Assembly (NCBI GenBank): GCA_963729605.1
Contig: CAVSNY010000007.1
Span: 128,001-192,000, forward strand
Direction of reading: 5' to 3'
From: an uncultured Gammaproteobacteria bacterium
GTDB lineage: Bacteria > Pseudomonadota > Gammaproteobacteria > DRLM01
DNA: 64,000 bases
The notes under the pieces were generated by a model, which saw only the letters and a list, made by a program, of their open reading frames with translations, did no database searches and was not told the DNA's origin. This document shows positions 18,361-62,612 of this stretch, in pieces. Position 1 is the stretch's first letter. The number at the start of each line of letters is the position of its first letter. Both the position numbers and the translations under genes were made by a program.

Positions 18361-19401
18361 TCACGGACAGGGATTGGGATGGTTTTGGTGAATCTCTTCG
18401 ATGCCGCTCAACACCGCCGGCGGCAGTTCGAGCTCGAGGCTGGCGATGTTGCGGCCCAGTTGTTCCAGGCTGGTGGCGCCCACCAGGGTGCTGGTCGTGA
18501 AGGGCCGGTGCATCACATAGGCCAGCGCCATTTGCGCGGGATCGAGACCGTGCTCGCGGGCGAGTTTCACGTAGGCCTCGGTGGCGGCCAGCCCGCGCGG
18601 GCCGGTGTAGCGGCGGAAGCGTTCGAAGCGGGTGAGCCGCGCCCCCGCCGGACGCTGACCCTCGAGGTATTTGCCCGAGAGCACGCCAAAGCCCAAAGGT
18701 GAATAGGCCAGCAGGCCGACGTTCTCGCGGTGGGCGATCTCCGCCAGCCCCACTTCGAAGCTGCGGTTGAGCAGGTTGTAGGGATTTTGAATACTCACCA
18801 CCCGCGGCAGATTGTATTCCTTCGCGAGCTGGAGAAAATGCATCACCCCCCACGGCGTTTCGTTGGAGACGCCGATGTGGCGGATCTTGCCGGCGCGCAC
18901 CAGTTCGCCTAGCACCTGCAAAGTCTCGATGATGGGCACGTCGTCGTCGGCGGGCTGATATTCGTAGCCGAGCTGGCCGAAGAAATTGGTCTTGCGATCG
19001 GGCCAGTGCAGTTGATAGAGATCCATGTAATCGGTTTGCAGGCGTTTGAGACTGGCGTCCAGGGCGGCGATGAGGTGCTCGCGGTTGAGACGCGGATTGC
19101 CGTCGCGGATCCACGTGAGATCGGTGGCGCGGCTGGCCGCCTTGGTGGCGAGGATCACCTCGCCGCGGCGGCCGCGCTGTTTCAGCCAGTTCCCGATGTA
19201 TTCCTCGGTACGGCCATAGGTCTCGGCCTTGGGCGGCACCGGGTACATCTCGGCGGTGTCGATGAAATTGACGCCGGCCTCGTAGGCGTAGTCCAGTTGC
19301 TCATGGGCCTCGGCCTCGCTGTTCTGCTCGCCGAAGGTCATGGTGCCGAGGCCCACCGCGCTGACCTTGATCTCGCTGCGACCCAAATGACGGTATTCCA
19401 T
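18361..19401 (-). CDS. tas: NADP(H)-dependent aldo-keto reductase Tas
   Basis: LGTMTFGEQN, FIDTAEMYPVP, DLYQLHWPDR and GVSNETPWG motifs. Confidence 0.93.
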   Translation of the reverse strand: MEYRHLGRSEIKVSAVGLGTMTFGEQNSEAEAHEQLDYAYEAGVNFIDTAEMYPVPPKAETYGRTEEYIGNWLKQRGRRGEVILATKAASRATDLTWIRDGNPRLNREHLIAALDASLKRLQTDYMDLYQLHWPDRKTNFFGQLGYEYQPADDDVPIIETLQVLGELVRAGKIRHIGVSNETPWGVMHFLQLAKEYNLPRVVSIQNPYNLLNRSFEVGLAEIAHRENVGLLAYSPLGFGVLSGKYLEGQRPAGARLTRFERFRRYTGPRGLAATEAYVKLAREHGLDPAQMALAYVMHRPFTTSTLVGATSLEQLGRNIASLELELPPAVLSGIEEIHQNHPNPCP

Positions 19402-19421
19402 GGCACGCCTCCGCTGTGGAT

Positions 19422-20708
19422 TTAGAGTTGCGAGAATACCTGTTCCGACGCGATCAGGGTGTTTTTGATCTCGCGTTTGCCGTGCGCGGCGGAAACGAAA
19501 CCCGCTTCGTAGGCCGACGGCGCGAGGTACACGCCCTGCGCCAGCATGCCGTGGAAGAACAGCTTGAAGCGCTCGACATTGCAGTTGGTCACCTGATAAT
19601 AATCCCGCACCGCTTTTTCCTCGGTGAAGAACAGGCCGAACATGCCGCCGACCTGATTGGTGGTGAGCGGGATGTCGAAGGCCTTGGCGCGCGTCACCAG
19701 GCCGTGGGTGAGGTGTTCGGTGCGGTCACTGAGTTCGGAGAAGAAGCCGGGCTTCTCGATCTCTTTCAACATCGCGAGGCCCGCCGCCATCGCCACCGGA
19801 TTACCCGACAGCGTGCCGGCCTGATACACCGGCCCGAGCGGCGCGATCTTTTCCATGATCACGCGCTTGCCGCCGAAGGCGCCGACCGGCAGGCCGCCGC
19901 CGATCACTTTGCCGAGCGTCGTGAGGTCGGGCGTGACTTTGTAATAGTGCCTGCGCGCCGCCGAGCGCGACGCGGAAGCCGGTCATCACTTCGTCGAAGA
20001 TCAGCACGCTGCCGTAGTCGTCGCAGAGCGTGCGCAGGCCCTCGAGAAAGCCGGGTTTGGGCAGCACGCAGTTCATGTTGCCCGCCACCGGCTCGACGAT
20101 GATGCAGGCGATTCTGGCCGCCGACTTGCGCGAAGGTGTCGCGCACCTGGTCGAGGTCGTTGTAGTCGAGGGTGATGGTGTGTTCGGCGAGCGCCGCCGG
20201 CACGCCGGCGCGAGGTCGGCACGCCCAGCGTCAGCGCGCCCGAGCCGGCCTTGACCAGCAGCGAATCGGCGTGGCCGTGGTAGCAGCCTTCGAATTTGAC
20301 GATCTTGTCGCGGCCGGTGAAACCGCGCGCGAGGCGGATCGCGCTCATGGTCGCTTCGGTGCCGGAACTCACCATGCGCACCATCTCGATCGACGGCACC
20401 AGCGCGCAGACCTTCTCCGCCATCTCGGTCTCGATGCGCGGTCGGCGCGCCGAAGCCGAGGCCGTTGTCGATCGCGCGCCTTCACCGCGGCGATCACCTC
20501 CGGATGCGCATGGCCCGAGAATCATCGGCCCCCACGAGCCGACGTAGTCGATGTATTGCCGGTCGTCCTCGTCGTAGAGATAGGCGCCTTCGCCGCGCTT
20601 GAAGAACAGCGGGTCGCCGCCGACGCCGCGGAAGGCGCGCACCGGCGAGTTGACGCCGCCGGGGATGTGGCGTTGGGCCTGGAGAAATAAATCGTGTGAG
20701 CGGGTCAT
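19422..20708 (-). CDS. hemL: Glutamate-1-semialdehyde 2,1-aminomutase (several apparent sequencing frameshifts)
   Basis: Fragments in different frames: [68 protein letters not shown]. Confidence 0.92.
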
Positions 20709-20737
20709 CGAGACTCCTTAACAAGCAAGATGTAGTT

Positions 20738-21397
20738 TTATTTTATTGCAGTCTGCGCGGCGCGCCGCGGCGGCCTGAACAGGCGTGCGATCTCCATCGC
20801 CGCGCCTTGCGGGTCGGCCTGGCCGAACACGCCGTGGATCACCGCCAGCAGGTCGGCGCCCGCCGCGATCAGCGCGCCGCCGTTTTCGGCGTTGACGCCG
20901 CCGATGGCCGCGACGGGAATCCGCACTGCGCCTTTGGCCTCGCGCAACAAGTCGGGCGACGCCGGCACGGCCTCAGGTTTGGTGCGCGAAGGAAAGAACC
21001 GCCCGAACGCGACGTAACTGGCCCCGGCGGCCTCGGCCTGCACGGCGCGCGGCAATTCATTGTAACAGGACACACCGATGATGGCCGTGGCGCCGAGCCG
21101 CGCCCGTGCGCTGGAGAGCGCGCCATCGTCGCGGCCGAGGTGCACGCCGTCGGCGCCGATGTCGGCGGCGAGTTCGATGTCGTCGTTGATGATCAGCGGC
21201 ACCCGCGCGGCGCGGCACAGGCGCAGCAGCGCGGCGGCCAGCTGGCGCTGATCCGCGGGGTCGCTGCGCTTGTCACGGTATTGAAGCATCGCCGCGCCGC
21301 CGGCGAGGGCGGCGCCGACTTGTTCGGCGAGGCGCGACGGCGCGGTGAGCGCGGGATCGGTGATGGCGTAGAGGCCCCGCTGCCAGGCGGCGTTCAC
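20738..21397 (-). CDS. thiE: Thiamine phosphate synthase
   Basis: GLYAITD, LQYRDK, LIINDD, GVHLG, GVSCYN and AIGG motifs; GTG start 21397 overlaps the thiD stop. Confidence 0.92.
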   Translation of the reverse strand: MNAAWQRGLYAITDPALTAPSRLAEQVGAALAGGAAMLQYRDKRSDPADQRQLAAALLRLCRAARVPLIINDDIELAADIGADGVHLGRDDGALSSARARLGATAIIGVSCYNELPRAVQAEAAGASYVAFGRFFPSRTKPEAVPASPDLLREAKGAVRIPVAAIGGVNAENGGALIAAGADLLAVIHGVFGQADPQGAAMEIARLFRPPRRAAQTAIK

Positions 21398-22215: not shown

Positions 22216-22337
22216 TCTCCAGCGGCTGCGCGTCCTCGGACGATGACGGCGATTGTAGCACTTCCGGCCTTTTACCGGCGCGGGGGACCGTGCGACAATT
22301 GGCGCCGCGTTTTTGAAATAGTCATTTGGAGGTTACA

Positions 22338-22529
22338 GTGCAATCCGATCTGTCCGGCGCAGACTACAAGCAGTACATGTGCCTCATTTGCGGCTTTATT
22401 TACGATGAGGCGTTAGGACGACCGGAAGAGGGCATCCCGCCGGGCACCCGGTGGGAAGACGTCCCTATTTATTGGAGCTGCCCCGATTGCGGCGCCGTCA
22501 AGGACGACTTCGAGATGGTGGAGATTTAA
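22338..22529 (+). CDS. Rubredoxin
   Basis: [10 protein letters not shown]...[16 protein letters not shown]; GGAGG RBS before GTG 22338. Confidence 0.95.
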
Positions 22530-22778
22530 AATTTAAAAAAGTCTTGAATAATCCCTCTGGAATTCTCAGGGCTGGGAAAGCGAAACATGCGATGTTCGCT
22601 TTCCTTCATTTTCAATGGCGGCGCATCCGGGTGTCGCGGGAACTGAACAAATCAGAGAGCCCCTTAATTTGACATGCCGCGCCGCGGGAGACCCCGCGTG
22701 ACGGCGCGGGTGCGGTTTTTTGATATGCGCAACCGCGTCCGGATTTGATCGCGCGGGCACGGCGTCTATTCCAATCAT

Positions 22779-22817
22779 CGGCCTTGGCCTGCGACCCATT
22801 GCCGCAGGCCAAGGCCG
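22779..22817. promoter_or_regulatory. 15-bp inverted repeat enclosing a RegA/PrrA-type box upstream of regB
   Basis: CGGCCTTGGCCTGCG-ACCCATTGC-CGCAGGCCAAGGCCG; the core GCGAC-N5-GCCGC matches the GCGNC..GNCGC RegA consensus. Confidence 0.55.
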
Positions 22818-22858
22818 GGCGGTTTGTTCATACTTGCGCAAAACTGCGAGCGGGCTAC

Positions 22859-24130
22859 GTGGACGACGACGGATTCAATCTCCCCTCTTCCAGCTTAAAT
22901 CTGCGACGGCTGGTCACCTTGCGCGCCATCACCTTGCTGGCGCAGCTGGCGGTGGTGTTGACCGCCCATTATGGTTTGGACGTGGCGTTGCGGTTGCCGG
23001 CGCTGTTGGGCGTGATCGCGCTGATGGCGGCGCTCAACGGTCTGAGCTGGTGGCGCATGCGCGGCGCGCGGCCGGTGACCGACGCCGAGCTGTTCGGGCA
23101 AATGCTGGTGGACGTGGCCGGGCTCAGCGCGCTGCTCTATTTCGCCGGCGGCGCCACCAATCCCTTCGTGATGTTGATGCTGCTGCCGTTGACCATGGCC
23201 GCCGCGGCCTTGCCGCCGCGGTTCAGCTGGAGCATGGCGGCGGTGATCGTGGCGTGTTACACCTTGCTGATGTTCGTTTATCAGCCCATCGGGGACGACC
23301 GGCACGCGCATAACGATCCCTTCGCCATGCATGTGCTGGGGATGTGGGTGGCCTTTGTGTTGAGCGTCGCGGTGGTGGCGTATTTCGTGGTGCGCATGGG
23401 CGAGACCCTGCGCGACCGCGAACGCCGCTTGGCGCAGGCGCGCGAGCGGGCCTTGCGCGACGCGCAGGTGGTGGCGCTGGGCGCGCTGGCGGCGGGCGCG
23501 GCCCACGAGTTGGGCACGCCCTTGGGTACTTTGGCGATACTGACCGGCGAATTGGAACGCGAACATGGCGGGGTGGCCGGGATCGCCGATACCGCGCGTC
23601 TGATGCGGAGCCAGGTGACGCGCTGCAAAGAGGCGTTGTCGCGCTTGACCGCCGATGCGGATCATCCGTCGGCGGAGGCGGCGTACCCGCAATCCGCCGA
23701 TGCCTTTCTCGACACCGGCCTCGCGCATTGGCGCGCGCTGCGGCCCACCGCCGTGGTCGATACGCGTTGGCGCGGGGCGCGGCCCGGCCCGCAGCTGTTG
23801 GCCGGCGCCGCCTTGCAACAGGCCTTGATCAATGTGCTGGACAACGCGGCGGATGCCTCGCCGCGCGGCGTGACGCTCAGCGGCGACTGGGACGGGGACG
23901 CCCTGGTGATAGAGGTGCATGACCAGGGCGGCGGGTTTTCCGCCGAGGTGCTGGCGGTGGCGGGCCGGCGCATGATCAGTACCAAAAGCGGTGAACAGGG
24001 CATGGGCATCGGTTTATTACTGACCCGCGCCGCGGTGGAGCGTTATGGCGGACGGATGGAATGTTTCAATCGGGGCGGCGGCGCGTGCGTGCGGATCAGC
24101 CTGCCTTTATTGACGGTGCGGACGCCGTGA
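22859..24130 (+). CDS. regB: RegB/PrrB-type redox-sensing histidine kinase
   Basis: Quinone-binding GGATNPF, H-box AHELGTPL, six TM segments, GMGIGL. GTG start is inferred. Confidence 0.9.
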   Translation: MDDDGFNLPSSSLNLRRLVTLRAITLLAQLAVVLTAHYGLDVALRLPALLGVIALMAALNGLSWWRMRGARPVTDAELFGQMLVDVAGLSALLYFAGGATNPFVMLMLLPLTMAAAALPPRFSWSMAAVIVACYTLLMFVYQPIGDDRHAHNDPFAMHVLGMWVAFVLSVAVVAYFVVRMGETLRDRERRLAQARERALRDAQVVALGALAAGAAHELGTPLGTLAILTGELEREHGGVAGIADTARLMRSQVTRCKEALSRLTADADHPSAEAAYPQSADAFLDTGLAHWRALRPTAVVDTRWRGARPGPQLLAGAALQQALINVLDNAADASPRGVTLSGDWDGDALVIEVHDQGGGFSAEVLAVAGRRMISTKSGEQGMGIGLLLTRAAVERYGGRMECFNRGGGACVRISLPLLTVRTP

Positions 24131-24675
24131 TGCCCGGGATCGACCAGACTTTTTTGCTGCTGGTGGATGACGACCCGGTTTATTGCCAGGTATTGGCGCG
24201 GGCCTTGGCCAAGCGCGGTTTCGCGGTGGAGGTCGCGCATGATGTGGCCGCCGCGCTGGCCCGGCTGGAGGACGGCACGCCCCAATTCGCGGTGGTCGAT
24301 CTCAATCTGCCGGGCCCTTCCGGCTTGACCCTGGTGCAGGCGCTGCACGGGCGCAATCCCGCGGCGCGGATCGTCGTCCTCACCGGTTATGCCAGCATCG
24401 CCACCGCGGTGGAGGCCATCAAGCTGGGCGCCACCTATTATCTGGCGAAACCGGCCGAGGCGGATGAGATCGTCGCCGCGCTGTCGAGCGGCGAGGCGGG
24501 GAATCCCGACCTGGAGGTGTTGCCGCGGCCGATGTCGGTGAACCGGCTCGAGTGGGAGCATTTGCAAAAGGTGTTGGCGGAGTGCGGCGGCAATATTTCC
24601 GAGGCCTCGCGCCGCCTGGGCATGCACCGGCGCAGTTTGCAGCGTAAGCTTAAAAAGCGTCCGGCGCGCAGTTGA
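24130..24675 (+). CDS. regA: RegA/PrrA-type response regulator
   Basis: LLVDDD, LTGYASIATAVEAIKLGA..YLAKPA and C-terminal LEWEHLQKVL..CGGNISEASRRLGMHRRSLQRKL. Confidence 0.93.
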   Translation: MPGIDQTFLLLVDDDPVYCQVLARALAKRGFAVEVAHDVAAALARLEDGTPQFAVVDLNLPGPSGLTLVQALHGRNPAARIVVLTGYASIATAVEAIKLGATYYLAKPAEADEIVAALSSGEAGNPDLEVLPRPMSVNRLEWEHLQKVLAECGGNISEASRRLGMHRRSLQRKLKKRPARS

Positions 24676-24695: not shown

Positions 24696-24730
24696 AAAAA
24701 AACAAAAGCCAGCCCGAGGGCTGGCTTTTG
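24696..24730. terminator. Bidirectional terminator between regA and the cytochrome c gene
   Basis: A-run, then AAAAGCCAGCCC-GA-GGGCTGGCTTTT, between convergent genes. Confidence 0.8.
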
Positions 24731-24752: not shown

Positions 24753-25088
24753 TCAGGGCAGCGCGAGCAGGAAATCGACCAACTTTTCGATGTCGGCGTC
24801 AGCAACGCGGGGGGAGTACGGAGGCATTGGTACGCCGCCGGTGAGTTCGGTCCAGTTACCCTTGCCGCCTTTTTTCACTTTTTCAACCAAAGTAGCCTTG
24901 GCACCGGCGTCGCCCTTGTATTTTTTGGCGACGTCACCCCAGCTGGGGCCAACGACTTTTTTGTCGACGGCGTGGCAGGCCAAGCAACCGGCCTTCTTCG
25001 CCAAGTCCATGCCCTCTTCGGCGTTCGCCTGAGCGGCCGCCATCATCAACACCGCTGCAGCGGATATGCTCAACAAACGTGCTTTCAT
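24753..25088 (-). CDS. Class I monoheme cytochrome c (c551/c552-like)
   Basis: Signal peptide (AQANA), CLACH, KVVGP and distal ligand in GVPMPP. Confidence 0.93.
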   Translation of the reverse strand: MKARLLSISAAAVLMMAAAQANAEEGMDLAKKAGCLACHAVDKKVVGPSWGDVAKKYKGDAGAKATLVEKVKKGGKGNWTELTGGVPMPPYSPRVADADIEKLVDFLLALP

Positions 25089-25409
25089 CGGTTTCTCCTT
25101 CACTCGTATTGTGTTACCAACATAAAACCGCGCTCCACAGGGAGCTTTGCCCCTTGACTATGAGCGCTTGGATGGTCTTGGGGATTGTTTAAGGACAGTG
25201 AATTCCAGTCGGTAGCACGCCCTCCCCATGCTCCCTCGTCCAAGTCGTATAACGGCTTGCCGGGGCTTTATGCCATGGGCTTGGCAGAAGTGTCAAGGTA
25301 CGGCGCTGGGAATTTACGCAAAGGGCCGTAGCATGGCAAGAGTGAATTGGTTAGAGTTGGAGGTTACGTAGCATTTGGTCGGGGATGTCGGCGCGAGGGA
25401 TGTCGGAAA

Positions 25410-26438
25410 ATGGGGTCGCGGGTTTTGCTGTTGGCAAGCTGGGTGATGGGAGTGGGCATGAGCGCGGCGGCCGCGGTGTCGGCGTCGGAATGCGCGCAGT
25501 GCCATACGGGTATGGATCACCGCCGCCTGCAGGTGACGGTGGGAAGTGAATGCGTCAGTTGCCACCGCGACGCGACTCGGGCCAAGCAAACCGCCATGAC
25601 GGCGCCCAAATCGGCGGGCCACTTACGGCGGGTGGCGGCCCGGGACGAGCCGGTTCACGCGCCGGCCGCCAAAGCCCGGCCCCCGGTGAGCGCCGAGCCC
25701 AATCCGATGGTGCTGATACCCGCCGGCGAGTTCGTGATGGGCAGCGACGACCGTCTGCCCGACGAGGGGCCGCGCCATACAGTGACCTTGGACGCGTACT
25801 GGCTGGATGTCTATGAAGTCACCAATGCGCAGTACAAAAAATTCATCGACGCTAGCGGGCGGCGTTCCCCCGGCCACTTCCGTAACCGCACCTATCCGCA
25901 GGGCAAGGCCGATCACCCCGTCACCGAGGTGACCTGGTATGACGCGGAGGCCTATTGCGCCTGGGCGGGCAAGCGCCTGCCCAGCGATCAAGAATGGGAG
26001 AAGGGCGCGCGCGGCGGCGACGGCCGGATGTTCCCCTGGGGTGATGAGTTCGACGCCGAGAAGGCCAACACGCCGCTGCGCTGGGCCAAGCTCAAGCAAG
26101 AGGGCGATACCCTGCCGGTAGGATCGTTTCCGGACGGGGTGAGTCCCTATGGCCTGTACGACATGTCGGGTAATGTCTGGGAATGGACCTCATCTTGGTA
26201 TCAAGCTTATCCCGGCAATACCCATCCCAGCGAAAATTACGGCGAGCAGTACAAGACCCTCAAGGGCGGTTCGTGGTGGGATTGTTCGTTCTACAAATGC
26301 GGGATCTCGGCGCCGGTGTTCAATCGCAGTTTCTTTTTGCGGGGCACCCACAATAAGAGTTTCGGTTTTCGCTGCGCGAAAGACGCGGCGCCGCAGGATA
26401 AACAAAAAGTCGCCAAAATTCAGGAGAATTTGCCATGA
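25410..26438 (+). CDS. Exported FGE-sulfatase (SUMF1)-fold protein with N-terminal diheme c segment
   Basis: Signal peptide, CAQCH (25491-25505) and CVSCH (25551-25565), then MVLIPAGEFVMG, EVTN, RLPSDQEWEKGARG, GLYDMSGNVWEW, GGSWWDCSFYKC, GFRC. Confidence 0.88.
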   Translation: MGSRVLLLASWVMGVGMSAAAAVSASECAQCHTGMDHRRLQVTVGSECVSCHRDATRAKQTAMTAPKSAGHLRRVAARDEPVHAPAAKARPPVSAEPNPMVLIPAGEFVMGSDDRLPDEGPRHTVTLDAYWLDVYEVTNAQYKKFIDASGRRSPGHFRNRTYPQGKADHPVTEVTWYDAEAYCAWAGKRLPSDQEWEKGARGGDGRMFPWGDEFDAEKANTPLRWAKLKQEGDTLPVGSFPDGVSPYGLYDMSGNVWEWTSSWYQAYPGNTHPSENYGEQYKTLKGGSWWDCSFYKCGISAPVFNRSFFLRGTHNKSFGFRCAKDAAPQDKQKVAKIQENLP

Positions 26439-27409
26439 GATGGAATAACTTCCGGGGGTGGTGGCGGGCGGGTCTGATATTGATGTCCTGCGTCGGCGTA
26501 CTGCGCGGCGCGGCGGCGGGGGACGACATGGTCTTGGTGGCCGGCGGCGTCTTCACCATGGGCAGCGATCGGGTAGCGAGCGAGGATGAAAGTGCCGGGG
26601 TGGGGACCAACAAACCCTGGTATGCGGACGAACGCCCCGCCCACCCGGTGGAATTGCCGGCCTTTCTCATCGACCGCTATGAGACGACCGATGCCCAATA
26701 CTTGCAATTCGTGGTCGCGACGGGCCACACGCCGCCCTTGCTGTGGGTACAAAACGGTTACCTGCTCAGCGCCCGCCGCCAGGAACTGGCCAAGCTCGAC
26801 ATCGAACGGCTGCGCCATTTGGCGGTGAAGACCTTCAAAATCGATGCGGACACCGGGGTCATGAGTAAAGAGAAGTTATTGGCCGCGATCGACGCCCGGC
26901 TGAGCGAGCTGGACAAAGAGCCGGTGACCAATGTGAGCTGGCACGACGCCGAGGCCTATTGCGCATGGGCCGGCAAGCGTCTGCCTAAAGAGGCGGAATG
27001 GGAAAAGGCGGCGCGGGGCCGCGACGGCCTGGAATTCCCCTGGGGCAATCAGTGGGCGGCCGGCCGCAGCAACGCCGGCGAAGAGATCTGGGAGGACGGC
27101 GTGGCGCCGGTGGGTTCTTATCCCAGCGACAAATCGCCCTACGGCGTGTACGACCTGGCGGGCAACGTGGCCGAATGGGTACAGGAGTGGTATCAGCCCT
27201 ACCCGGGCGCCGAATACCAGAGCAAGGATTTCGGCGAAAAATTCAAGGTGGTGCGCGGTGCGGGCTGGGGCCGGGAAGGTCATTACGCCATGCACCAGTT
27301 CCAGCGCGCCGCGTACCGGTTTTATCTGCCGCCGGAGGCGACCCTGGATGACGTGGGTTTCCGCTGCGTGAAAGAAGTGGCCGCCAAAACCGCGCAACCG
27401 GGCGGCTGA
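26435..27409 (+). CDS. Second exported FGE-sulfatase-fold protein
   Basis: MVLVAGGVFTMG, RLPKEAEWEKAARG, DLAGNVAEW and GFRC motifs; ATGA overlap with the previous gene. Confidence 0.88.
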   Translation: MRWNNFRGWWRAGLILMSCVGVLRGAAAGDDMVLVAGGVFTMGSDRVASEDESAGVGTNKPWYADERPAHPVELPAFLIDRYETTDAQYLQFVVATGHTPPLLWVQNGYLLSARRQELAKLDIERLRHLAVKTFKIDADTGVMSKEKLLAAIDARLSELDKEPVTNVSWHDAEAYCAWAGKRLPKEAEWEKAARGRDGLEFPWGNQWAAGRSNAGEEIWEDGVAPVGSYPSDKSPYGVYDLAGNVAEWVQEWYQPYPGAEYQSKDFGEKFKVVRGAGWGREGHYAMHQFQRAAYRFYLPPEATLDDVGFRCVKEVAAKTAQPGG

Positions 27410-30144: not shown

Positions 30145-31401
30145 ATGAACCTCACCGAACTTAAGCAAAAAAGCCCGACCGATTTATTGGGAATCGCCGA
30201 CGAAATGGGCATCGAAGGCATGGCGCGCTCGCGCAAGCAGGATGTGATCTTCGCCATTCTCAAGGCCCACGCCAAAAAGGGCGAGGATATTTTCGGTGAC
30301 GGCGTGCTGGAGATTCTTCAGGACGGCTTCGGCTTTTTACGATCGGGCGACAGCTCCTATCTCGCGGGGCCCGATGATATCTACGTCTCGCCGAGCCAGA
30401 TCCGCCGCTTCAATTTGCGCACCGGCGATACGGTGTCCGGCAAGATCCGCCCGCCCAAAGAGGGCGAGCGTTATTTCGCGCTGCTCAAGGTCGACGAGAT
30501 CAATTACGAGCCGCCCGAAAACGCCAAGAACAAAGTCCTGTTCGAGAACCTCACTCCGCTGTTCGCCAACAAGCGGCTCAGCATGGAACAGGGCAACGGC
30601 AGCACCGAGGACATCACTGCGCGCATCATCGATTTGGTGGCGCCGATCGGCAAGGGCCAGCGCGGCATGATCGTCTCGCCGCCCAAGGCCGGTAAAACCA
30701 TGATGCTGCAGAATATCGCGCAGTCGATTGCGCACAACCATCCCGAGTGTTACCTCATCGTATTGCTCATCGACGAACGTCCCGAGGAAGTCACCGAGAT
30801 GTCGCGCTCGGTGCGCGGCGAAGTGATTTCTTCTACGTTCGACGAACCCGCCACCCGCCATGTACAAGTAGCGGAGATGGTGATCGAGAAGGCTAAGCGT
30901 TTGGTGGAGCATAAGCGCGACGTGATCATTCTGCTGGACTCGATCACCCGTTTGGCGCGCGCCTACAACACGGTGATCCCCTCGTCGGGCAAGGTGTTGA
31001 CCGGCGGCGTGGACGCCAATGCGTTGCAAAAACCAAAACGGTTTTTCGGCGCGGCGCGTAATATCGAGGAAGGCGGTTCGCTGACCATCATCGCCACCGC
31101 GCTGGTCGAAACCGGTTCGCGCATGGACGACGTGATCTACGAAGAATTCAAAGGCACCGGCAACAACGAGATGCATCTCGACCGCAAGATCGCCGAGAAG
31201 CGCATCTATCCGGCCATCAACATCAACCGCTCCGGCACCCGCCGCGAAGAGTTGCTCACCCACCCCGATGAGCTGCAGAAGATGTGGATACTCCGCAAAC
31301 TGCTGCACCCCATGGACGAGTTGGCCGCCATGGAATTCATGCTCGACAAACTCAAGGCCACCAAGACCAACGCCAGTTTCTTCGATTCCATGAAGCGCTG
31401 A
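30145..31401 (+). CDS. rho: Transcription termination factor Rho
   Basis: [31 protein letters not shown] and EEFKGTGN. Confidence 0.98.
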
Positions 31402-31428
31402 TGCCGCGCCGGCGGCGCGGTGAATAGC

Positions 31429-33926
31429 TCACCCCGCCGTCGGCAGCTTGATGTCCACCGGTTTTACATTCCAGATTTCTTCGGCGTACTGACGGATGGT
31501 GCGGTCCGAAGAAAATTTTCCCATGTGCGCGACATTGAGTATGGCCTTGCGCGTCCATTCCTCGCGCTGGGTGTACAAGGCCGCGACCGCCTCCTGGCTG
31601 GTAATGTACGACGCGTAATCGGCCAACAGCAGATAGTGGTCGCCGCCGTGGGTCAGGTTATCCGCGATCGGCCGGTGCAGGTCGGCGTTGCCCGGTGAAA
31701 AATAGCCGTTGGCTATCATGTCCAGCGCCTGTTTCAGTTCGGGATTGCCGTGATAATAATCCCAAGGGTTGTGGCCGCGCGTGTAAGTCTCCGCCACCTG
31801 AGGCGTGGTCATGCCGAAGATGAAGATGTTCTCCTTGCCCACCTCTTCGCAGATCTCCACGTTGGCGCCGTCCAAGGTGCCGATGGTGAGCGCGCCGTTG
31901 AGGGCGAACTTCATGTTGCTGGTGCCCGAGGCCTCGGTGCCGGCGGTGGAGATTTGTTCCGACAAGCTCGCAGGCCGGGATGATCAGCTCCGCCAGCGAG
32001 ACGTTGTAATTGGGGATGAACACCACCTTGAGTTGATCGCCGATGGCGGGATCGTTGTTCACCACGTCGGCGACGTCGTTAATCAGCTTGATGATCTTTT
32101 TGGCCAGCACATAACCCGGCGCGGCCTTGCCGGCGAAGATCGCCGTGCGCGGCACCCGCGGCGCGGCGCTGCCTTGGCGGATACGGTTGTACAAGGTGAT
32201 GACGTGCAGCACGTTGAGCAGTTGCCGTTTGTATTCGTGGATGCGTTTGACGTGCACGTCGAACAGGCTGTCGGGATTGATCTGCACGTTCCAATTGCTG
32301 GCGGATGAAGCCGGCCAGCCGTTCCTTATTGGCCCGTTTCACCGCCGCGAACTCGCCGCGGAAATCCGCGTCGGCGGCGAACGGCGCGAGGCGCCGCAAT
32401 TGATCGAGGTCTTTGCGCCACGCGTCGCCGATGCGTGAGGTGATGAGCTTGGACAGGCCTGGATTGGCCAGATGCAACCACCGCCGCGGCGTGACGCCGT
32501 TGGTCTTGTTGGAAATCTTGCCGGGATAAACTGCGTCGAAGTCGTGAAAGATGGTCGATTTCATCAACTCGGTATGTATGGCGGCCACACCGTTCACCGC
32601 ATGGCTGCCGGCCACCGCCAGGTGCGCCATGCGCACCCGCCGTTCGCCGTCTTCATTGATCAGCGAGACGCGCCGCATCCGCGCGTAGTCGCCGGGGAAC
32701 AGGTGGGTGACGCACTTCAAAAACTGATGATTGATCTCGTAGATGATCTGCAAATGCCGCGGCAGGATCTGCTCGAGCAAGGCCACCGGCCAGGTCTCCA
32801 GTGCCTCCGGCAGCAGGGTGTGATTGGTGTACGAGAAGGTGCGGACCGTGATGTCCCAGGCCTTGTCCCAATCCACGTGATAAATGTCCACCAGCAAGCG
32901 CATCAACTCGGGAATGGCCAGCACCGGATGGGTGTCGTTGAGCTGGATGGCCACCTGGTCGGGCAAGGCGTCGAAATCGTCGTGGGTTTTTTGGTAGCGG
33001 CGAATGATGTCCTGCAGGGTGGCGCTGACGAAGAAATATTGCTGTTTCAAACGCAGCTCGCGGCCCATCAGCGTAGTGTCGTCGGGATAAAGCACCTTCG
33101 ACAAATTCTCCGATTCGTTCTTCACTTCGACCGCTTTGATGTAATTGCCTTCGTTGAAATAACGCAGGTCGAAATCGCGGCTGGCCTTGGCCGACCACAG
33201 CCGCATATTGTTCACGGTGTTGGTGCCGAAACCGGGAATCGGCGTGTCGTAGGCCATGGCCATCACGTCTTCCGTGCCGATCCAGTGATAACGCTTGCGG
33301 CCGCGCTCGTCGGGATACTCCACCACCCGCCCGTAAAATTTCACCGGATATAACACTTCCGGGCGCGGGAACTCCCAGGGATTGCCGTAGCGCAGCCAAT
33401 TTTCCGGGTGCTCCACTTGATAGCCGTTTTCGATGCGCTGGTTGAACATGCCGTATTCATAGCGGATGCCGTAGCCGTAGCCCGGCAGGCCGAGGGTGGC
33501 GATGGAGTCGAGGAAGCAGGCCGCCAGCCGGCCCAGGCCGCCGTTGCCGAGCGCCGCGTCCGGCTCCAGTTCGCGGATGGTTTCCATGTCGAGGCCGATG
33601 GCGCGGAAGGCCTCGGTGAACTCGTCGGCGATGTCCATGTTGAGCACGCTGTTGGTGAGCGTGCGGCCGATGAGAAACTCCAAGGACATGTAATAAATGC
33701 GCTTGGCGTTTTGCCGGTAATAGGTCCGCTGAGTCTCCATCCAGCGTTCCATGAGCCGATCGCGCACCACGTAGGCCGCGACGTGATACCAGTCGCGGTC
33801 GGTGGCGGTGTACATATCCTTGCCGGCGGAATACTCCAGGCGGTTGGCCAGGGATTGTTTGATGGATTCGGTATCGAGGCCGAGGTAATCGTATTTGAGT
33901 TTGGGATTAATGCGTTGCTGGGCCAT
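31429..33926 (-). CDS. glgP: Glycogen/alpha-glucan phosphorylase (frameshifts near 32290 and 31970, probably errors)
   Basis: [38 protein letters not shown] (PLP Lys) and GKFSSDRTI spread over three ORF fragments. Confidence 0.93.
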
Positions 33927-34036
33927 GAGTCCTTTACCCCCTTCGGGTCGTCCTTTGAATCCCGTCGGGATTCATAATAAGCCTTTTTACGGCCCGCCAC
34001 GCCATTTCTTGAAGAAGAGCGTCCCCGCCGCCTCCC

Positions 34037-36631: not shown

Positions 36632-37492
36632 TTATAGTAACCCGCCTTGCATTGGTCGGCTGCGGTGTTCGATGACTTTTAGAATAGTCTTTTCAGTTAC
36701 CAGACGTTCGCCCTGTCTATTTTGTTGAATGCGCATCTCCACAATCAGGGAATCACCTTTTGCAAACGCCTCGCCATTGTTAACGCGGGAAATAAAATCC
36801 ACATCAGCGATATCCGCGTGGAACGAACTGGACCCGTCCGAAAAACGCCATTTATTACCATCCTTAAAGACGGGCGCTTCAATGATAAGAGCTGTCTTGA
36901 TGCTGTTGTCGAACAGCGGGACCTCAGGCGCGACTGGTACAAAGGCGCTGGCTTCGCGTTGCGACACCTCGATAATGCGCTCTACCCCTTGTTCATGTTC
37001 AGCATCTACGGATACTGAATCCATCCCTTGTTTTCCGAGAGCATCATGAATGAAACGCTGAGCGGCTTCAGAAGCTTTTTCTTGAAAAACTAGCGACACA
37101 CTTTGTGTGTTGACAGTAAGTATCTGGCCGTTATTGTTAGTGACGTTGATAGTGTTGTGCTGTCCGCGTTCGCTCTTTTGCGGAGGGACGCCACCAAGAT
37201 GCTTCCATAACTTAACTGCCTCATTGATGGTGCCAAACAACTCTCTCATTGTCCCAGCGGTTAGCAAGGTGGCAATAGGGCCACCCACATTGATGACTAA
37301 ATCAGTAACGAACGAACCACGCCCGAAACCCGCCACCTCCGCTCGTGCGCGCGCTTCTTCTCCATAAGTTGCCTTCGCCGCCGCTACTACAAACTCGGAG
37401 AAAGCGATCATGTTTGCAGCGGCATCGTATACATCCATGAGACCAGCCTCGACTGCGGGGCCGCTATAACGAAGGCTAAGACGTGTTTGCAT
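36632..37492 (-). CDS. Hypothetical protein with atypical (AT-richer) composition
   Basis: Intact 286-aa ORF with codon usage visibly different from its neighbours. Confidence 0.8.
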   Translation of the reverse strand: MQTRLSLRYSGPAVEAGLMDVYDAAANMIAFSEFVVAAAKATYGEEARARAEVAGFGRGSFVTDLVINVGGPIATLLTAGTMRELFGTINEAVKLWKHLGGVPPQKSERGQHNTINVTNNNGQILTVNTQSVSLVFQEKASEAAQRFIHDALGKQGMDSVSVDAEHEQGVERIIEVSQREASAFVPVAPEVPLFDNSIKTALIIEAPVFKDGNKWRFSDGSSSFHADIADVDFISRVNNGEAFAKGDSLIVEMRIQQNRQGERLVTEKTILKVIEHRSRPMQGGLL

Positions 37493-52085: not shown

Positions 52086-53400
<1,315 letters not shown>

Positions 53401-56500: not shown

Positions 56501-56692
56501 TCCCGCCCGGCGGGCCGCCGATTAGCGGAAGTCCGCCGGGATGGAGCACTTTTGCCGGCATTGCGTTGAAATGCCGGGCCCCGCGCTTGTATACTCCTGT
56601 CCCATTTCGCCTCCGGCGGGGGATGGGTTCGCGCGCCCTTTAGGTTTAGGGCATGCTATGAAATCGGTCAGCGAGCGAGACAGGCGAATAGA

Positions 56693-62612
<5,920 letters not shown>

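Follow-up and report, generated by a model that had tools for sequence, protein, structure and literature searches.

The window analysed here, a stretch of 64,000 nucleotides, corresponds to C7:128001-192000 of the source genome G000 (3.48 Mb, 94.5% complete, G+C content of about 62%) and contains mostly housekeeping genes. Amid these lies a group of three genes (24753-27409) which are the subject of this analysis: a gene for a monohaem cytochrome c on the minus strand and, divergent from it on the plus strand, two genes for proteins with the fold of formylglycine-generating enzymes (FGEs). The first of these two proteins carries a fused two-haem module and is called dihaem-FGE here; the second, a paralog without cysteine pair, is called FGE2. 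A preliminary description of this DNA had proposed that the three genes form a new periplasmic redox module, and all the elements of the arrangement that it listed, including the ATGA overlap of the two FGE-fold genes, are present. The three genes are intact and full-length in comparison with their relatives.

The dihaem-FGE gene (25410-26438, plus strand) encodes 342 amino acids and ends with a TGA at 26436-26438. Its open reading frame (ORF) was listed as 25347-26438; the ATG at 25410 is the likely start, because a 95%-identical relative (P0001) has the same N-terminus. Read by eye, residues 1-25 (25410-25484) form a signal peptide that ends with AAAVSA in front of SE, and relatives have equivalent hydrophobic N-termini. 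The two CxxCH motifs which had been noted just behind the signal peptide are CAQCH (25491-25505, residues 28-32) and CVSCH (25551-25565, residues 48-52). They are 15 residues apart and together make up the dihaem module (25491-25565), which matches the Pfam multihaem models of the c3/c7/MtrC type only under their cut-offs (19.5 against 25, 18 against 24.8 and 17.3 against 30). A poorly conserved linker (residues 53-96, 25566-25697), variable in length among relatives and modelled with a low predicted local distance difference test (pLDDT) score, leads to the FGE-sulfatase fold domain (residues 97-327, 25698-26390). This domain is recognised by Pfam PF03781 (E 5.9e-63, 213.3 bits against a cut-off of 23.3), by its match to human FGE and in the AlphaFold model. 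An HMMER alignment to human FGE (1Y1E) places the active-site loop, GGSWWDCSFYKC, at residues 286-297 (26265-26300); this is the GGSWWD-CSFYKC loop of the preliminary description.

With an alignment of 128 sequences the AlphaFold model has a mean pLDDT of 82.5, against only 56 with an alignment of 25 sequences. The values exceed 90 over most of the FGE domain, of which the Cys loop (59) is the sole low-confidence part, and they fall to about 55 in the dihaem module and below 50 in the tether (residues 59-78). A Foldseek search with this model returned FGE-fold proteins only (TM scores of 0.62-0.71, depending on the target), and CalU17, ToxD, pFGE, the human, T. curvata and S. coelicolor FGEs, EgtB, OvsA and PvdO were matched with similar scores. 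As true FGEs are not set apart from CalU17, ToxD, pFGE or EgtB, the fold cannot settle the membership of dihaem-FGE.

FGE2 (26435-27409, plus strand) is an FGE-fold protein of 324 amino acids (PF03781, E 1.6e-59). Its ATG overlaps the TGA stop codon of the dihaem-FGE gene (ATGA, CCATGAGA), and an AGGAG box lies upstream. The protein is 34% identical to dihaem-FGE and has neither Cys pair nor haem motif; it has an insertion of about 60 residues and, at the position of the Cys pair, an invariant GHY. It is predicted to be exported, and by eye its N-terminus can be read as a signal peptide ending near the junction of AAA and GDD or as a lipobox-like ILMSC19. The residues G282, H283, Y284, R291 and R295 are invariant in 34 FGE2-family sequences, and none of the 120 best FGE2 relatives contains a CxxCH motif or the Cys pair.

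The cytochrome c gene (24753-25088, minus strand) encodes a class I protein of 111 amino acids. It was listed as 24753-25103; the upstream GTG start is disfavoured, and the likely start, judged from the sequence, is the ATG at 25088, seven bases behind an AAGGAG box. The protein has a signal peptide (read by eye), a single CLACH motif and a PMPP stretch holding the likely Met ligand, and reaches 43.6 bits with Pfam Cytochrom_C (PF00034, cut-off 21.3). Its closest solved relatives are cytochromes c-552 and c-551 (for example PDB 2D0S and 351C), which match the whole mature protein with E values of 1e-22 to 1e-16. We see nothing unusual in this protein compared with other cytochromes of the c-551/c-552 type, and it is probably a general electron carrier.

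Conservation and distribution of the dihaem-FGE family

The family is abundant in metagenomes: a word-indexed database search with dihaem-FGE gave more than 7,500 matches, and the best 120 of these were used for motif counts. Exactly two CxxCH motifs together with the Cys pair are found in 115 of the 120, which means that the combination is not due to chance. The other five have the pair and no CxxCH, and are probably short entries, covering 66-71% of the query. The spacing of the haem motifs is 15 residues in 97 of the 115 relatives (range 14-21), and the linker to the FGE domain measures 31-63 residues, with a median of 45 in the 112 relatives measured. The alignment of 128 sequences includes, beside Pseudomonadota, members which are only 41-49% identical and come from Thermodesulfobacteriota, Nitrospirota and Nitrospinales-type loci. 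Even so, C28, C31, H32, C48, C51 and H52 are invariant both in this alignment and in that of 25 sequences, and in the larger alignment the same is true for G286, G287, S288, C292, Y295, C297, G298, S300, N305 and R306. The motifs on which the preliminary description had built its proposal are therefore conserved in homologs.

Within the bacterial family to which the window belongs, dihaem-FGE is found in 10 of 11 other genomes (E <= 1e-60), and seven genomes, counting G000, have two matches. It is absent from all 29 genomes that represent 29 other families of the same class. One genome of those carrying the family (G006) holds three dihaem-FGE/partner pairs. The distribution is core to the lineage and yet patchy, and the pair has multiplied. 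More widely, the family is common in lineages of sulfur, iron and nitrite oxidisers and in metagenome-assembled genomes (MAGs) of anaerobe-rich phyla.

For the gene neighbourhoods we used all 26 loci which encode the family loop in our genome and metagenome scans. Seventeen of them have two CxxCH motifs, six have a C-x3-CH and a CxxCH, in two the N-terminus is cut by the contig end and one has no haem motifs (in L007, from Nitrospirae, the family loop is present and the haem module absent). In 15 of the 26 loci, the next 4 kb on the 3' side include a Cys-less FGE-fold gene of the same orientation. In the clade of the window, which has a CSFY-type loop (L001-L006 and L094-L101), this applies to 12 of 14 loci; L002 has no partner and L096 ends 238 bp after the gene. 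The co-occurrence of both paralogs, as put forward in the preliminary description, is thus found, in a clade-dependent form. Beyond the partner, the annotated neighbourhoods show unrelated housekeeping genes, differing from locus to locus.

Some of the loci deviate in ways worth recording. In the Nitrospinales-type loci L009 and L102-L106, the first haem site is C-x3-CH (for example CQTTCH), the loop reads GGSWFDCLSYGC and there is no FGE partner gene. Five of these six have a divergent LplA/LipB-like ligase gene (the neighbours of L102 are unannotated), and the genes that come next are FG-GAP and TerB in L103 and L104 and FG-GAP in L106. The gene order in L008 is dihaem-FGE, a spermine-synthase-like gene and FGE2. 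A connection with OmcE nanowires was considered and rejected, as the relevant passages of the mBio paper PMC13712944 make no mention of FGE, sulfatase or spermidine and the window contains no cluster of this kind. At a further locus, L025, the Cys pair is missing, although a cytochrome c, an FGE-fold protein with two haem motifs and an FGE-fold paralog are encoded there.

Relation to formylglycine-generating enzymes and other known families

Dihaem-FGE shares the PF03781 fold with the canonical FGEs (human SUMF1, 1Y1E; T. curvata, 6S07; S. coelicolor, 6MUJ), and human FGE is its best solved relative by sequence (E 1.3e-35 to 1.6e-35). In the HMMER alignment, C292 and C297 correspond to the catalytic C336 and C341 of human FGE, S288 to S333 and R306 to R349, and both tryptophans of GNVWEW are conserved. 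According to the account of the T. curvata active site in PMC6676471, C269 and C274 are the Cu(I) ligands, S266 and W228 form the pocket for O2 or an anion, R276 hydrogen-bonds the thiolate of the substrate Cys and shields one face of the copper, and Y273 contacts the substrate. Dihaem-FGE retains the fold, it has C-x4-C behind GGS, and both pocket residues, Ser and Trp, are present. Its loop reads S-W-W-D-C-S-F-Y-K-C-G-I, whereas human and T. curvata FGE have S-x-[LM]-C-H-x-x-Y-C-x-R. Judging from these alignments, the metal-binding core appears to be kept and the substrate-facing shell rebuilt in a manner that is specific to the family and invariant within it.

There are further differences from canonical FGEs. 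Dihaem-FGE is predicted to be exported, it has the fused N-terminal two-haem module on a tether of 31-63 residues, and it is encoded beside a Cys-less paralog and in genomes without CxPxR sulfatases. In line with the preliminary description, it departs from the sulfatase-maturing FGEs, as both the loop residues and the lack of a CxPxR sulfatase in the genome indicate. If the chemistry were the same, both kinds of protein would need two external electrons per turnover.

FGE2 has a parallel in SUMF2/pFGE (1Y4J, E 3.1e-27), likewise an FGE fold without Cys pair beside a Cys-bearing paralog; SUMF2 pairs with SUMF1. The bacterial protein differs from SUMF2 by its insertion of about 60 residues, its invariant GHY, its periplasmic location and the overlap with the partner gene. 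NirV and PvdO resemble the pair as exported FGE-fold proteins which are tied to redox processes and have roles other than sulfatase maturation. Pfam and NCBIfam scans of the window found neither nirK nor pyoverdine genes near the pair, and dihaem-FGE scores 71.8 bits against a cut-off of 500 with the NCBIfam model of PvdO (NF051459, 'dihydropyoverdine dehydrogenase'). To our knowledge, PvdO has neither Cys pair nor haem module. Other fusions of haem and FGE domains exist in the ESM Atlas, mostly from Bacteroidota, and combine PF03264 (Cytochrom_NNT) with PF03781; one cluster of 50 members has PF03264 in 80% of them, another of 63 members in 25%. These proteins have a haem module of the NapC/NirT type and, with 396-456 amino acids, are longer than dihaem-FGE.

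The literature we searched contains no description of a haem-fused FGE, which agrees with the novelty that the preliminary description had claimed for the module. The roles listed for the FGE family in one preprint on FGE-like immunity proteins, namely FGE, EgtB, PvdO, NirV and kinases, include none like dihaem-FGE (bioRxiv 10.1101/2021.05.21.445229). In an all-against-all search of representatives, giant multi-domain proteins with FGE repeats dominate, and the family loop occurs in 10 of 150 rows, 7 of them with two CxxCH motifs. Membership of the sulfoxide synthases EgtB, OvoA and SenA, which would also call for an N-terminal domain of the DinB type, was considered and rejected, as only the FGE-domain part matches and the scores are far too low (TIGR03440 116.2 against 360, SenA 107.6 against 420, ovoA 46.2 against 400). 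The same is true for GldK/PorK and GldJ, lipoproteins of the type IX secretion system (T9SS), with 98.9 against 350 for GldK and 24.5 against 458 for GldJ.

These families also raise the question whether one or both proteins could be binding or scaffold proteins without enzymatic function, in the way of PorK/GldK or of Tsi3, the FGE-like immunity protein of type VI secretion systems (T6SS). FGE-fold immunity proteins without catalytic cysteines are known, as the same preprint reports (bioRxiv 10.1101/2021.05.21.445229), PorK/GldK are another example, and FGE2 has no Cys pair. But in addition to the GldK and GldJ scores lying so far under their cut-offs, genes of the T6SS or T9SS are absent next to the pair, a protein that only binds would hardly need two covalent haem sites and an invariant Cys pair, and FGE2 overlaps the dihaem gene by ATGA. 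We regard a purely non-enzymatic role as highly improbable.

Sulfatases are the proteins that true FGEs mature. The window contains no sulfatase in a PF00884 search, just as the preliminary description had stated, and the sole match in G000 (C7:992802-993830) lies outside it. This match belongs to a protein of 712 amino acids with an N-terminal hydrophobic region (by eye) and with TAPSL at the position of C/S-x-P-x-R. A search for C-x-[PA]-x-R-x4-[TS]-G, and for a stricter form of it, in 17,768 six-frame ORFs of G000 gave nothing but spurious short frames and two unrelated, longer ORFs (721 and 532 amino acids), which we take to be a GlgB-like and a PanC-like protein. Of ten other genomes that carry the family, four have no PF00884 match, four have only matches without the motif and two have Cys-type sulfatases. 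Counting G000, no Cys-type sulfatase was thus found in 9 of 11 family-bearing genomes, of which the other ten may be incomplete. The Pfam-annotated neighbourhoods of the family loci contain no sulfatase either.

Possible function of the pair

Our preferred reading, a tentative one which may well prove wrong, is that the pair forms a copper-thiolate oxidase which is wired by haems, includes a partner subunit without catalytic role and acts on a target other than a sulfatase. The catalytic subunit would be the FGE-fold domain, keeping the Cys pair that could bind Cu(I) together with the Ser and Trp of the pocket for O2 or an anion. The two-haem module on its flexible tether would connect the Cys site with the pool of periplasmic cytochrome c, which in this case probably means the adjacent c-551-type protein, and its two haems could supply the two electrons that close each O2-dependent cycle. 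The periplasm offers neither dithiothreitol (DTT) nor glutathione but does offer reduced cytochrome c, and the tethered module is therefore a plausible built-in reductant relay. The treatment of the FGE cycle in PMC12123546 has it end in a species that requires reduction by two electrons, with a physiological reductant that is unidentified, and with DTT and glutathione working in vitro. The Cys-less FGE2 would be a non-catalytic subunit analogous to SUMF2 beside SUMF1, probably aiding substrate binding or haem docking, and the substrate would be a thiol or a Cys-bearing molecule or protein other than a CxPxR sulfatase.

A number of observations weigh against this reading. In the loop, the equivalents of His270, Tyr273 and Arg276 of T. 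curvata FGE are S293, K296 (a Tyr, Y295, comes one place earlier) and I299, and there is one additional residue between the Ser and the first Cys in comparison with true FGEs. With its site remodelled in this way, the enzyme might fail to activate O2; another possible role of the two cysteines is that of a redox-active disulfide. The family is also found in MAGs labelled Thermodesulfobacteriota and Deltaproteobacteria, a poorer fit to an O2-dependent enzyme; one locus with such a label adjoins COX1-like and haem O synthase genes. The partner gene is missing in 11 of the 26 loci, two of which are not assessable, and is found in none of the seven Nitrospinales-type loci (in L102 the sequence stops about 100 bp behind the gene) and in neither of the two Nitrospirota-type loci (L011 and L013). 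Two of the ten other genomes examined for sulfatases do carry the Cys type, G004 with CSPTR twice and CTAGR and G006 with CGPYR, and the only Cys-pair FGE-fold proteins found in these genomes are the dihaem ones. Finally, the neighbourhoods annotated at the family loci give no pointer to a substrate.

The cytochrome c, too, fits less closely than the preliminary description had supposed when it counted this gene as part of the module. Just 4 of the 26 family loci have a Pfam-verified monohaem cytochrome c at a distance of up to 4 kb: in L005 it is divergent as in the window and 47% identical, in L008 and L012 it is directly upstream, and in L003 it is located 2.4 kb upstream, on the far side of two beta-propeller genes. 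The cytochrome is an occasional neighbour and no fixed part of the FGE pair. In L003 (3126-7969, from a Gallionellaceae MAG), the monohaem cytochrome c and the two Reg_prop beta-propeller genes precede the pair on the same strand, and these genes may form a larger operon.

The proposed heterodimer was modelled from the two mature chains with two haems and alignments of our own. Three runs gave complex scores of 0.36, 0.40 and 0.46 (median 0.40), the best control gave 0.01, and the calibration to which these values are compared, in which 116 of 157 solved complexes and 2 of 215 mismatched pairs passed, had neither ligands nor these alignments. The runs share at least 61% of their contacts, and the pLDDT of the partner is at least 86. 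Among the passes at 0.60 or less are just 18 of the 157 solved complexes and both mismatches, and because the homodimer of the human paralog has been solved (1Y4J, 2 chains), the score may reflect likeness to it; both points add to those against our reading. The model supports the heterodimer of the preliminary description weakly.

The genomes G004 and G006 also bear on an alternative, namely that dihaem-FGE is a genuine periplasmic FGE which matures exported type I sulfatases or related proteins of the alkaline phosphatase superfamily, with the haems as a built-in reductant. The conserved Cys pair, Ser and Trp and the position of human FGE as best solved sequence relative would suit such an enzyme, as would the fact that both genomes have Cys-type sulfatases and, as Cys-pair FGE-fold proteins, only the dihaem ones. 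However, the sulfatases of G004 and G006 have no FGE-fold gene next to them, and G000, although 94.5% complete, belongs with the nine genomes in which no Cys-type sulfatase was seen. The two residues that would face the substrate, Arg276 as the contact of the thiolate and Tyr273, are replaced by Ile and Lys, the annotated neighbourhoods are free of sulfatases and Foldseek gives true FGEs no better rank than CalU17, ToxD or pFGE. We consider a sulfatase-maturing role clearly improbable.

Another possibility is that the pair handles copper. The bis-Cys site would bind Cu(I) tightly, the haems could reduce Cu(II) to Cu(I) or keep this site reduced, and the pair would then be a periplasmic cupric reductase or a Cu(I) chaperone for respiratory cuproenzymes, a role often guessed for NirV. 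The Cys pair is the same as that which forms the Cu(I) site of a true FGE, and some of the genes nearby are suggestive: of the other FGE-fold paralogs of G000, one is part of a cluster for a COX1/FixO haem-copper oxidase and another lies immediately upstream of ccmABCEFG, L012 adjoins COX1-like and UbiA (haem O synthase family) genes, and NosD-like genes are within a few kb at L006 and L025. But the G000 paralogs near oxidase and ccm genes are not of the dihaem type, and there is no recurrent cuproenzyme neighbour in the 26 family loci or at the second pair of G000. The invariant Ser of the O2 pocket and the long family loop (C..Y.CG.S....NR) suggest substrate chemistry, and a genome with two or three diverged pairs is more readily explained by several substrates than by one metal. 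On balance we find copper handling unlikely, though it deserves to be kept in mind.

A reversed direction of electron flow seems somewhat less probable still. Here the two cysteines, be it with copper, without it or as a redox-active disulfide, would oxidise a thiol, a persulfide or another periplasmic substrate without O2, and two electrons would pass over the haems to cytochrome c and the respiratory chain. Two haems could take up the two electrons of such an oxidation, the neighbour in the window is a respiratory-type c-551 cytochrome, and the family's presence in oxidiser lineages and in MAGs of anaerobe-rich phyla would be in keeping with this, as would the name that NCBI gives to the FGE-fold protein PvdO. 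We know, however, of no FGE-fold enzyme shown to work as such a dehydrogenase, and the PvdO match is far under its cut-off. In addition, energy-metabolism genes do not accompany the pair in the annotated neighbourhoods, and in the account of the mechanism in PMC12123546 the C-H abstraction by FGE requires a copper-oxygen species.

Returning to the haem-wired oxidase, one can go a step further and imagine a self-powered copper oxygenase of the FGE type, which draws electrons from the respiratory cytochrome c pool and installs formylglycine or another Cys-derived modification on non-sulfatase proteins of the periplasm or envelope. This more specific proposal is speculative and on present evidence unlikely. 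If true, it would provide a natural answer as to the reductant of copper sites of the FGE type, and would imply a new class of modification targets in chemolithotrophic bacteria, with each diverged pair serving a different target.

True FGEs are unusual mononuclear Cu(I) oxygenases and a widely used bioconjugation tool. A family which combines the Cys pair with a two-haem relay offers a testable model for the re-reduction of FGE-type sites, and as most of the genomes that carry it have no sulfatase to mature, it points to an unknown class of substrates. What the present analysis adds to the preliminary description is the residue-level departure of the loop, the sulfatase census of 9 out of 11 genomes with its two exceptions, the dependence of the pairing on clade, the rarity of an adjacent cytochrome c, a complex score with controls and the distribution at the level of the family.

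Genomic surroundings and other FGE-fold genes

The 321 bp that separate the FGE pair from the divergent cytochrome c gene (25089-25409, defined by the gene coordinates) contain a single weak sigma-70-like match, on the minus strand at 25339-25311, with 0.5 expected by chance. A terminator-like hairpin with a 12-bp stem and a T run, found by a consensus scan only, lies 3' of the cytochrome c gene (24703-24730, minus strand). In X18 and X19, which are rhizosphere metatranscriptome libraries of a single study, contigs span the cytochrome c gene with 0-2 differences, and one X18 contig of 317 nt falls within the FGE2 gene with 6 differences; in both cases this documents presence in an RNA library and does not prove transcription. 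The dihaem-FGE gene is touched by X18, X19 and X20 with short pieces only, which run into unlike sequence. X14 covers most of the stretch in separate contigs and may be DNA. The DNA runs considered carry the habitat labels wetland, soil, biofilter, groundwater and bioreactor, which do not enter the argument here.

Just upstream of the cytochrome c gene, at 22745-24675, are a RegB/PrrB/ActS-like histidine kinase gene and a RegA/PrrA/ActR-like response regulator gene, whose listed ORFs overlap. Both are under the NCBIfam equivalog cut-offs, the RegB-like protein with 255 against 350 bits and the RegA-like with 194 against 250 bits. No such two-component genes were seen beside the relatives of the pair, where only weak, unrelated response-regulator matches occur. 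A rubredoxin-like ORF (read by eye) is at 22326-22529. Four housekeeping genes of the window are each broken across consecutive frames, namely gltB (56570-61157), aroB (52136-53399), hemL (19300-20742) and the glycogen phosphorylase gene (31355-33971). This suggests indel errors in the assembly; pseudogenes are less likely. The ORF at 36632-37492, amid housekeeping genes, matches the NCBIfam model 'LAPAL motif-containing putative phage structural protein' with 215.9 bits (cut-off 60).

G000 has nine FGE-domain genes in all, and a true EgtB is encoded on its contig C3. A second dihaem-FGE with partner is located outside the window at C7:281990-284187 (L089:7742-10188). Its haem motifs are CGRCH and CLRCH, its loop reads GGSWFDCSFYKC and it is 60% identical to the protein of the window. 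The Cys-less partner, of the lipoprotein type, lies 210 bp downstream, the pair adjoins divergent luxI/luxR-type genes, and a cytochrome gene with four CxxCH motifs (c554-like) is found about 4 kb further downstream. Two more genes of the partner type, with the GHY motif and the insertion, occur singly.

Two other FGE-fold genes of this genome have no Cys pair. One of them (C7:656840-666322, L092) encodes 355 amino acids with an N-terminal hydrophobic stretch and is the last gene of a cluster that also encodes an oxidase of the COX1 type, a monohaem subunit resembling FixO and two small proteins, of which one has a CxxCH; about 630 bp 3' of it is a gene for a spermine-synthase-like protein of 909 amino acids. 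The other (C7:766184-772426, L093) encodes 289 amino acids and lies directly upstream of ccmA, ccmC, ccmE, ccmF and a ccmG-like redoxin gene.

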